Assembly (NCBI RefSeq): GCF_003334305.1
Contig: NZ_QOWS01000083.1
Direction: 5' to 3' (one strand)
DNA length: 345 bases
Origin: Escherichia coli
GTDB lineage: Bacteria; Pseudomonadota; Gammaproteobacteria; Enterobacterales; Enterobacteriaceae
In this document: piece after piece, positions 1-345 of the stretch
Layout of the letters: each line of letters starts with the position of its first letter
Position numbering within the stretch: the stretch's first letter is position 1
Position numbers and translations under genes: made by a program
Notes under the pieces: generated by a model
What the model was told of the DNA's origin: nothing
Seen by the model: only the letters and a program-made list of their open reading frames with translations
The model's database searches: none

Positions 1-183
1 TCACGCCTGAAGGGAAAGCTGCACGTTATCAGCAAGCGTTACACTCAGCGCATTGAGCGACATAATCTGAATCTGAGACAACATCTGGCAAGGCTGGGAC
101 GGAAGTTACTGTCGTTCTCAAAATCGGTGGAGTTGCATGACAAGGTCATCGGGCATTATCTGAACATAAAACACTATCAGTAA
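1..183 (+). CDS. insB: IS1 transposase InsB (InsAB' C-terminal part), 3' partial: last 60 codons plus stop
   Basis: Frame 1 is open from position 1 to TAA at 181-183. Manual translation: [60 protein letters not shown]. The ...[23 protein letters not shown] tail matches the IS1 InsB C-terminus as I recall it. The 5' end lies outside the window. Confidence 0.88.
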
Positions 184-198
184 GTTGGAGTCATTACC
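176..198 (+). repeat. IS1 terminal inverted repeat (about 23 bp), overlapping the insB stop codon
   Basis: ATCAGTAAGTTGGAGTCATTACC is the reverse complement of the IS1 end consensus GGTAATGACTCCAACTTA(T/C)TGAT. In IS1 the insB stop lies inside the terminal repeat (established knowledge). Exact repeat length is from memory. Confidence 0.75.
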
Positions 199-268
199 TC
201 CTCCCGAACTCAAAGCTATCATACAGATAATTACTGGTTAACCCTATATAGGGCATTTTAAAGTGTTG
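199..268. other. 70-bp AT-rich non-coding spacer between the IS1 end and the IS3 end; origin unidentified
   Basis: No ORF of meaningful length on either strand. Sequence TCCTCCCGAACTCAAAGCTATCATACAGATAATTACTGGTTAACCCTATATAGGGCATTTTAAAGTGTTG matches neither IS terminus as I recall them. Confidence 0.6.
236..253. repeat. Two overlapping perfect palindromes: GGTTAACC (236-243) and CCCTATATAGGG (242-253)
   Basis: Seen directly: GGTTAACC and CCCTATATAGGG each equal their own reverse complement. Function unknown; could be a protein-binding dyad or coincidental. Confidence 0.5.
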
Positions 269-307
269 TGATCTTACCCAGCAATAGTGGACACGCGGCT
301 AAGTGAG
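269..307 (+). repeat. IS3 left terminal inverted repeat (IRL), approximate extent
   Basis: IS3 has imperfect terminal inverted repeats of roughly 39-40 bp (established knowledge). The inner boundary cannot be confirmed without the right end, so the end coordinate is approximate. Confidence 0.55.
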
Positions 308-320
308 TAAACTCTCAGTC

Positions 321-328
321 AGAGGTGA
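321..328 (+). promoter_or_regulatory. Shine-Dalgarno / ribosome-binding site for IS3 orfA
   Basis: AGAGGTGA contains GAGG at 322-325, 8 nt upstream of the ATG at 334, which is suitable spacing. Confidence 0.55.
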
Positions 329-333
329 CTCAC

Positions 334-345
334 ATGACAAAAACA
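334..345 (+). CDS. insE: IS3 OrfA (transposase N-terminal DNA-binding subunit), 5' partial: first 4 codons only, M-T-K-T
   Basis: ATG ACA AAA ACA directly follows the SD. IS3 OrfA begins MTKT... as I recall, and the K-12 gene name for IS3 orfA is insE. Only 12 nt are inside the window, so the call rests on the IS3 context rather than on the ORF itself. Confidence 0.75.

Follow-up and report, generated by a model that had tools for sequence, protein, structure and literature searches.

Architecture of the analyzed locus

The analyzed window, i.e., the whole stretch of 345 bp of Escherichia coli DNA, is composed of three parts: the right end of an IS1F element, a 70-bp spacer (positions 199-268), and the left end of an IS3 element. 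The transposase genes of both insertion sequences (ISs) lie on the plus strand. The first-pass annotation of this DNA had placed an IS1 right end at position 198 and an IS3 left end from position 269, in the same orientation and 70 bp apart, and all of these assignments were confirmed by the comparisons presented below. The features distinguished within the window are summarized in Table 1.

Table 1. Features distinguished within the 345-bp window.
Feature	Position	Strand	Details
IS1F, right-hand 198 bp	1-198	+	matches the annotated tail of K-12 IS1F at 198/198 positions
IS1F right terminal inverted repeat (IRR), 23 bp	176-198	+	ends with ...CATTACC
Spurious 20-codon ORF MPYIGLTSNYLYDSFEFGRR	194-256	-	PGAP hypothetical protein WP_113705808.1
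Relic of an arlC/ompTp-type omptin gene, 70 bp, internal	199-268	-	codons 194-216 of 317, encodes QHFKMPYIGLTSNYLYDSFEFGR
Canonical IS3, left-hand 77 bp	269-345	+	77/77 identical to K-12 IS3B and IS3C
IS3 imperfect terminal inverted repeat (IRL)	about 269-307	+	IRL and IRR agree at 28/39 positions
IS3 5'-UTR hairpin	303-333	+	-12.6 kcal/mol, z -1.8
IS3 orfA (InsE) start ATG	334-336	+	M-T-K-T

The reference for the left part of the window was the IS1F copy annotated as a mobile element in the genome of E. coli K-12 MG1655 (NC_000913.3, 4518472-4519239). The K-12 sequence and the window agree through ...GTCATTACC (i.e., ...GGAGTCATTACC), after which K-12 continues with gaccatgttt and the window with tcctcccgaa, and this split fixes the end of the IS1 element at position 198 (breakpoint 198/199). 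The plus-strand frame spanning positions 1-183 encodes the C-terminus of InsB (...LNIKHYQ*, with the TAA stop at 181-183), and in the profile search it matched the NCBIfam model transpos_IS1 (E 3.9e-9). In the genome L001, which matches the window at 100%, the complete element has 768 bp (7431-8198), 766/768 of them identical to IS1F of K-12, and its left and right inverted repeats agree at 20/23 positions. Near-identity to the reference, the 768-bp length, the 23-bp inverted repeats, and the insA/insB' frames assign the element to the IS1 family, isoform IS1F. The 8-9-bp target duplication that marks a simple IS1 insertion is missing here, which bears on the origin of the flanks and not on the identity of the element.

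The IS1F copy of L001 is annotated as an IS1F transposase with a programmed frameshift, but it contains an internal stop. This in-frame stop is located within insB (approximately 7970-7975), the same stop is present in insB7 of K-12, and in K-12 as well as in RefSeq genomes the insB copy of IS1F is labelled a pseudogene. Because of this stop, the IS1F copy probably cannot make its own transposase, and its movement would need IS1 functions provided in trans or homologous recombination.

In the right part of the window, homology to IS3B and IS3C of K-12, each of which resides in a different genomic context, begins exactly at TGATC, and the flanks diverge directly before this motif. The third K-12 copy, IS3A, was rejected as a boundary reference, as it is an atypical 1255-bp copy devoid of the first three bases. 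IS3A is located in eaeH (L007 2227-3484), and its annotation likewise covers 1255 bp, with GCC in place of the terminal TGA of IRL. The IS3 element of L001 (8269-9526, 1258 bp) is identical to both IS3B and IS3C at 1258/1258 positions, has the same TG...CA ends, and is annotated with a "programmed frameshift". Assignment to IS3 proper is based on the identity starting from TGATC in the window and, in the 100%-matching genome, on the 1258-bp size, the imperfect inverted repeats, and the orfA-orfB -1 frameshift; the 3-bp target duplication, a mark of simple IS3 insertion, is absent. On the basis of the 100%-matching genomes, it can be expected that the source genome of the window also carries a complete IS3.

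The hairpin upstream of orfA is formed by the inverted repeat GTGAGTAAACTCT / AGAGGTGACTCAC and covers the GAGG motif located just upstream of the orfA ATG, although it is only modestly more stable than shuffled sequences. It may damp translation of read-through transcripts. This hairpin is an intrinsic feature of IS3 and has no part in the main finding of this work.

Identification of the omptin gene relic

The spacer aligned, on the minus strand, with a gene encoding a 317-aa omptin of plasmid pMRY15-117_1 (L005), with 67/70 nucleotides identical, and this similarity ends at both IS ends (plus or minus one ambiguous base on each side). The chromosomal ompT gene of K-12 matched the spacer at only 47/65 nucleotides. 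The 23-aa peptide encoded by the spacer fits the omptin profile NF008224 at positions 194-215 (E 8.6e-8); being that of a fragment, its score lies, as anticipated, far under the cut-off for the whole protein. In tblastn searches, the peptide showed 91-95% identity to plasmid omptins, 77% to OmpP, and 68% to IcsP. The relic differs from the plasmid gene by three substitutions (G to S, R to L, and G to R).

The omptin gene of pMRY15-117_1 shares 73% identity with OmpT of K-12, and its neighbors are a mig-14-like gene and an SDR (hlyF-type) gene. It thus has the arlABC/ompTp arrangement, localized in the PI-6 region of ColV-type and AIEC plasmids, which was described by Desloges et al. (PMC6854850), who reported that ArlC is 73% identical to OmpT; CP041299, one of the spacer matches, is the arlC plasmid of that study. 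In total, the spacer alone was found in 2528 genomes. It is at least 99% identical in 2048 records and 95-99% identical in a further 760, and the sampled members of the latter class sit in an intact gene for an omptin outer-membrane protease, mostly on plasmids.

By sequence match the segment belongs to the omptin family, but a complete frame of about 317 aa with a signal peptide and the catalytic Asp/His residues is absent. The SDNDEHY catalytic segment of the omptin gene lies downstream of the retained fragment, and both continuations have been replaced by IS ends. The 70-bp segment is thus a gene relic, and neither a functional gene nor a member gene of the family; its recognition is the only real addition of this work over the first-pass annotation. 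The 20-codon ORF annotated as WP_113705808.1 is the same omptin fragment read through into the terminal repeat of IS1F, and it is an annotation artefact, which was found annotated in thousands of RefSeq genomes (e.g., L001 8194-8256, minus strand).

When one-genome-per-species bacterial contigs were scanned for exact 40-mers of the relic allele, 0 matches were obtained, and no intact donor omptin gene carrying this allele was found among the species representatives. Likewise, the missing omptin halves were not found beyond the IS3-like elements of L002, L019, and L020. Literature searches on IS1F/fecI and on fecIRABCDE/IS1 retrieved the description of fec within KpLE2 (PMC3032704), and a description of the omptin relic was not found among the results.

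Genomic context of the junction

In strain 504838, which matches the window at 100%, the gene order is fecE-D-C-B-A-R-I, ykiE, IS1F (768 bp), the relic, and IS3 (1258 bp), followed by a truncated hypothetical gene, a GTPase gene, Ag43, CP4-type island genes, tRNA-Ser (serX), and ghrA. The pair of ISs is thus flanked by fec/ykiE on the left and by a truncated serX-island gene on the right. The earlier suggestion of an IS-scarred accessory region can therefore be made specific: it is the right edge of the ferric-citrate uptake (fec) island within a tRNA-linked genomic island, with near-identical copies on IncF plasmids. The type strain ATCC 11775 carries this fec-IS1F-relic block in the leuX (tRNA-Leu) island, which is also the location of fec in KpLE2 of K-12. 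In ATCC 11775, as in the majority of genomes, a degenerate stub stands in place of IS3, and an ariR/ymgB-family gene comes next.

The serX island (504838; L012/L013) and the leuX island (ATCC 11775, L021; K-12, L003) share a backbone of GTPase-Ag43-CbtA/YeeU genes, which could mediate the exchange between these islands. The serX-island gene truncated by IS3 in L001 adjoins, in other genomes, a type I restriction-modification system (L010 1204-10565; L011 1212-10561) with an embedded DarT/DarG toxin-antitoxin pair and an M48 peptidase gene, and this defence cluster is absent from L001.

On IncF plasmids (L004 900-5112; L017 1-4109; L016 3801-4370), the same module, composed of IS1, the relic, the IS3 stub, and ariR, was identified. 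The genes placed to the left of IS1 are there evgS/evgA-like two-component genes or a fimbrial gene, and not fec. The plasmid relic has 71 bp, as it contains an additional C where it meets IS1.

IS3 stub and mosaic elements

The common stub (e.g., ATCC 11775, L002 8269-8605; approximately 2000 genomes) consists of IS3 positions 1-235 joined to positions 1134-1227, i.e., it is internally deleted. Its identity to IS3 is about 89% within positions 67-235 and 1134-1227, and complete at positions 1-66. All 26 differences between the stub and IS3, found in 238 aligned columns, are located after column 66, a distribution with a chance of about 2e-4 under uniform decay. In the stub, the ATG of orfA is mutated to AAG. 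The window is identical to the majority form through position 334 and has the canonical sequence from position 335, where the T of ATG stands in place of the A of the stub.

The intact-IS3 form of the junction is rare. With a 530-bp junction probe, for which identity of at least 99.8% requires a canonical IS3, about 21 records with canonical IS3 were obtained at this threshold, besides a small class at 98.7% and a class at approximately 90% identity.

Two strains from these probe matches were found to carry full-length IS3 elements of mixed composition, located next to the relic. In FDAARGOS_1058 (L020 5131-6385), SNPs and indels typical of the stub are present at positions 67-98 and 200, the sequence is canonical afterwards, and an integrase gene follows. 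In ECC-1470 (L019 5131-6385), the stub changes at positions 67-98 are accompanied by another diverged patch (124-356), after which the sequence becomes canonical, and the right flank is a dGTPase-family gene. Both mosaics are recombinants of the stub and an intact IS3, with crossovers at different places. The form present in the window most probably follows the same pattern, with a crossover inside the first 66 nucleotides of the element (window positions 269-334). In another strain, M114 (L015 2843-4100), the IS3 adjoining the relic carries only one of the stub-type changes, the G at position 200.

The uneven divergence of the stub may go back to an earlier conversion event, or the stub may derive from a diverged IS3 isoform. 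Similarly, its perfect first 66 nucleotides could result from an older conversion event or from a constraint acting on IS ends, rather than being a mark of the crossover in the window.

The opposite direction of change was also considered, i.e., that the arrangement with the intact IS3 is ancestral and gave rise to the widespread stub through mutations and an internal deletion. IS copies commonly decay, and the stub shares with IS3 the exact left junction along with the first 66 nucleotides. However, beyond position 66 the stub is about 11% off IS3, while the L001 copy matches K-12 IS3 at 1258/1258 positions, and a divergence of this extent cannot have arisen from a copy still identical to an active IS3. 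The location of 26/26 differences after column 66 also disagrees with uniform decay, the intact form is known from only about 20 records as compared to approximately 2000 genomes with the stub, and on its right side the intact form is bordered by a truncated, unrelated island gene, with no target-site duplication. We consider an ancestral intact IS3 improbable, and favor the replacement of a pre-existing stub by an intact element.

Target-site duplications and exchange of the flanking modules

The sequences flanking IS1F (ggggatttc and tcctcccga) do not contain a 9-bp duplication, and none was detected in any of the six contexts checked. The IS3 element is flanked by ttg/ata in L001 and by ttg/gaa in L015, i.e., it lacks a 3-bp duplication, unlike IS3B of K-12, which is bordered by ATC on both sides.

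The outer neighborhoods of the pair are variable. The relic constitutes a constant right flank of IS1F in combination with three different left flanks, namely fec (L001), evgAS-like genes (L004/L017), or a fimbrial gene (L016), and reciprocally, the fec left flank is constant in combination with different right flanks, i.e., the relic or the yjhU region (K-12). As one flank remains constant while the other varies, the IS1 copy can be recognized as a joint of module exchange. Taken together, the lack of target-site duplications, the variable outer flanks, the mosaic IS3 elements, and the adjacent deletions identify the two IS ends as joints of recombination and deletion, and not as fresh insertions or an insertion hot spot.

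Two sister strains with the same IS3 differ from L001 in the extent of the DNA retained around the junction. Relative to L001, a further 184 bp of the right-flank gene are retained in M114 (L015). In the other strain, Ecol_AZ159 (L014 2838-2843), the IS3 left end abuts the first 5-7 nucleotides of IS1F, the rest of which has been deleted together with the omptin relic, giving a fecI-ykiE-IS3 arrangement. In a derivative of Nissle 1917 (L006 5001-5110), the relic has 67 bp (3 bp shorter), the region of the ariR-family gene is deleted, and the IS3 stub has additional SNPs and stops close to the position corresponding to 306 in the window.

These results allow the remaining proposals of the first-pass annotation to be evaluated. 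Its prediction of rearrangement-prone flanks agrees with the deletions adjacent to IS3 on either side, as well as with the mosaic IS3 elements bearing different right flanks. The suggestion that one element had inserted near a locus already disrupted by the other also fits, as both ISs flank a disrupted omptin gene of which the 70-bp relic is left. The hot spot proposal, in turn, found no support, as neither IS is accompanied by a target-site duplication and thus neither occupies a fresh, simple insertion site.

For the same reason, it is very unlikely that IS1F and IS3 were placed 70 bp apart by two independent simple transpositions into a hot spot, with no later rearrangement. ISs commonly cluster in accessory DNA and both elements are of full length in L001, but neither a 9-bp duplication around IS1F nor a 3-bp one around IS3 is present, the enclosed 70 bp are an internal gene fragment with both continuations missing, and the outer flanks of both ISs vary between strains and plasmids around fixed inner junctions. 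A composite transposon was rejected too, given that the two ISs belong to different families, only 70 bp are enclosed, and duplications are lacking. Recombination and deletion at the IS ends thus remain the preferred explanation of this architecture.

Conservation of the junction and a possible function of the spacer

The whole 345-bp sequence recurs at 100% identity in 13 complete E. coli chromosomes, and at least 80% of the window is covered in one place in 2066 of the 5426 complete E. coli genomes. Accordingly, the junction of IS1F, the relic, and the IS3 left end is present in approximately 38% of complete E. coli genomes, usually with the degenerate IS3 stub. IncF plasmids from E. coli (97.7%) and from Salmonella (94%) also carry near-identical copies of the window. 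The question, raised in the first-pass annotation, of whether the arrangement is conserved or unique to one strain can therefore be answered: the junction is not strain-specific.

Such conservation of the spacer (at least 99% identity in 2048 records) may raise the question of whether it is kept for a function, as a micro-protein, a small RNA, or a regulatory site, the more so as PGAP annotates a 20-aa ORF within it and a 12-bp palindrome, CCCTATATAGGG, is present at positions 243-254. The ORF, however, is merely a run of omptin codons entering the IS1 repeat, and the palindrome encodes P-Y-I-G and occurs also in the intact plasmid omptin gene. A search of the window against Rfam (E up to 1) returned no RNA family. 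The promoter and terminator scan of the window detected no terminator at any position, and its only promoter-like matches were two weak ones inside IS1F, with none in the spacer or at either junction. Moreover, the spacer was lost without replacement in Ecol_AZ159 and shortened in Nissle, and recent common descent together with linkage to fec accounts for its conservation. A function of the spacer is therefore highly improbable.

Although short-read assemblies break at multicopy repeats such as IS1 and IS3, and the matching genomes have a median of 12 places similar to some part of the window, a chimeric mis-assembly has a practically negligible probability and was excluded as a general explanation, since the identical 345 bp recur in 13 separately sequenced complete chromosomes and the same junction in approximately 2000 genomes and on plasmids of E. 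coli and Salmonella.

Proposed history of the junction

The window is, with high probability, a structural scar devoid of function, which marks the right-hand boundary of the E. coli fecIRABCDE-ykiE island. From the arrangements observed in present-day genomes, the following order of events can be proposed. IS1 and an IS3-like element would have struck the two sides of an omptin gene of the arlC/ompTp type, and later events at each IS would have removed the rest of the gene, leaving only the 70-bp segment. Among the genomes examined, there was none with an omptin half kept next to either IS.

Both ISs would then have served as portable homology. The IS1 copy may have joined the left modules (fec, or the evgAS-like and fimbrial genes of IncF plasmids) to the right ones (the omptin relic, or yjhU in K-12). 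The IS3-like element presumably decayed in most genomes to the internally deleted stub, whose first 66 nucleotides still equal those of IS3. In the lineage of the window, the stub would have given way to an intact canonical IS3, most probably through homologous recombination inside these 66 nucleotides (positions 269-334), and the replacement would have joined the fec-IS1F-relic block to the truncated gene of the serX island. We infer both the order of these events and the position of the crossover from the junction variants described above.

Significance of the junction

The fec genes are linked to mastitis and to urinary-tract fitness. It is conceivable, if slightly less probable than the contrary, that the junction acts as a fixed "handle" on the fec operon, with the IS3 stub and the IS1 copy repeatedly used as homology patches through which the fec module is moved, or its neighbors are swapped, among tRNA islands (leuX and serX) and IncF plasmids. 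If this were the case, the variants of the junction would constitute a readable record of the spread of this fitness/virulence locus in E. coli. The variants themselves (the stub, mosaic IS3, intact IS3, and deletions) could mark movements of fec between the leuX and serX islands and plasmids, and this would be the largest use of the locus.

Beyond annotation hygiene and the local genome architecture, the importance of the locus is slight. The gain for annotation is that a hitherto unannotated 70-bp spacer and a spurious 20-aa protein are explained as a dead piece of an arlC-type omptin gene. As regards the architecture, the right edge of the fec island can be described as a pair of IS joints at which the flanking DNA is exchanged or deleted.

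Comparison with known systems

The closest known counterpart of the spacer is arlC (ompTp), as the reference gene aligned with it over 67/70 nucleotides shares with arlC the mig-14-like/SDR neighbors and the 73% identity to OmpT. The difference is that in the relic only 23 codons are left, without the catalytic Asp/His region, signal peptide, start, or stop.

The counterpart of the left part is IS1F located by fecI in the phage-like element KpLE2 of the K-12 and B strains, where the same fecIRABCDE-ykiE-IS1F block, the same left junction (…ggatggggatttc|ggtaatg), and the same insB stop are found. The right flank of IS1F is the yjhU intergenic region in K-12, whereas in the window it is the omptin relic followed by IS3. 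The islands also differ in position, which is serX in the strain matching the window and leuX in the case of K-12 KpLE2.

As to the processes involved, adjacent deletion and IS-IS recombination are established generators of island mosaics for IS1 and the IS3 family. The junction shows the same features as the products of these processes, i.e., a fixed end combined with a varied neighbor, no target-site duplications, mosaic elements, and nested deletion endpoints. The first-pass annotation had regarded the locus as known biology and not a new system, and we share this view, as all the components and processes recognized here are known ones. The junction is ordinary biology that implies no new mechanism or system, and, compared with other IS-driven island mosaics, it differs from them in nothing of kind and represents their textbook outcome.
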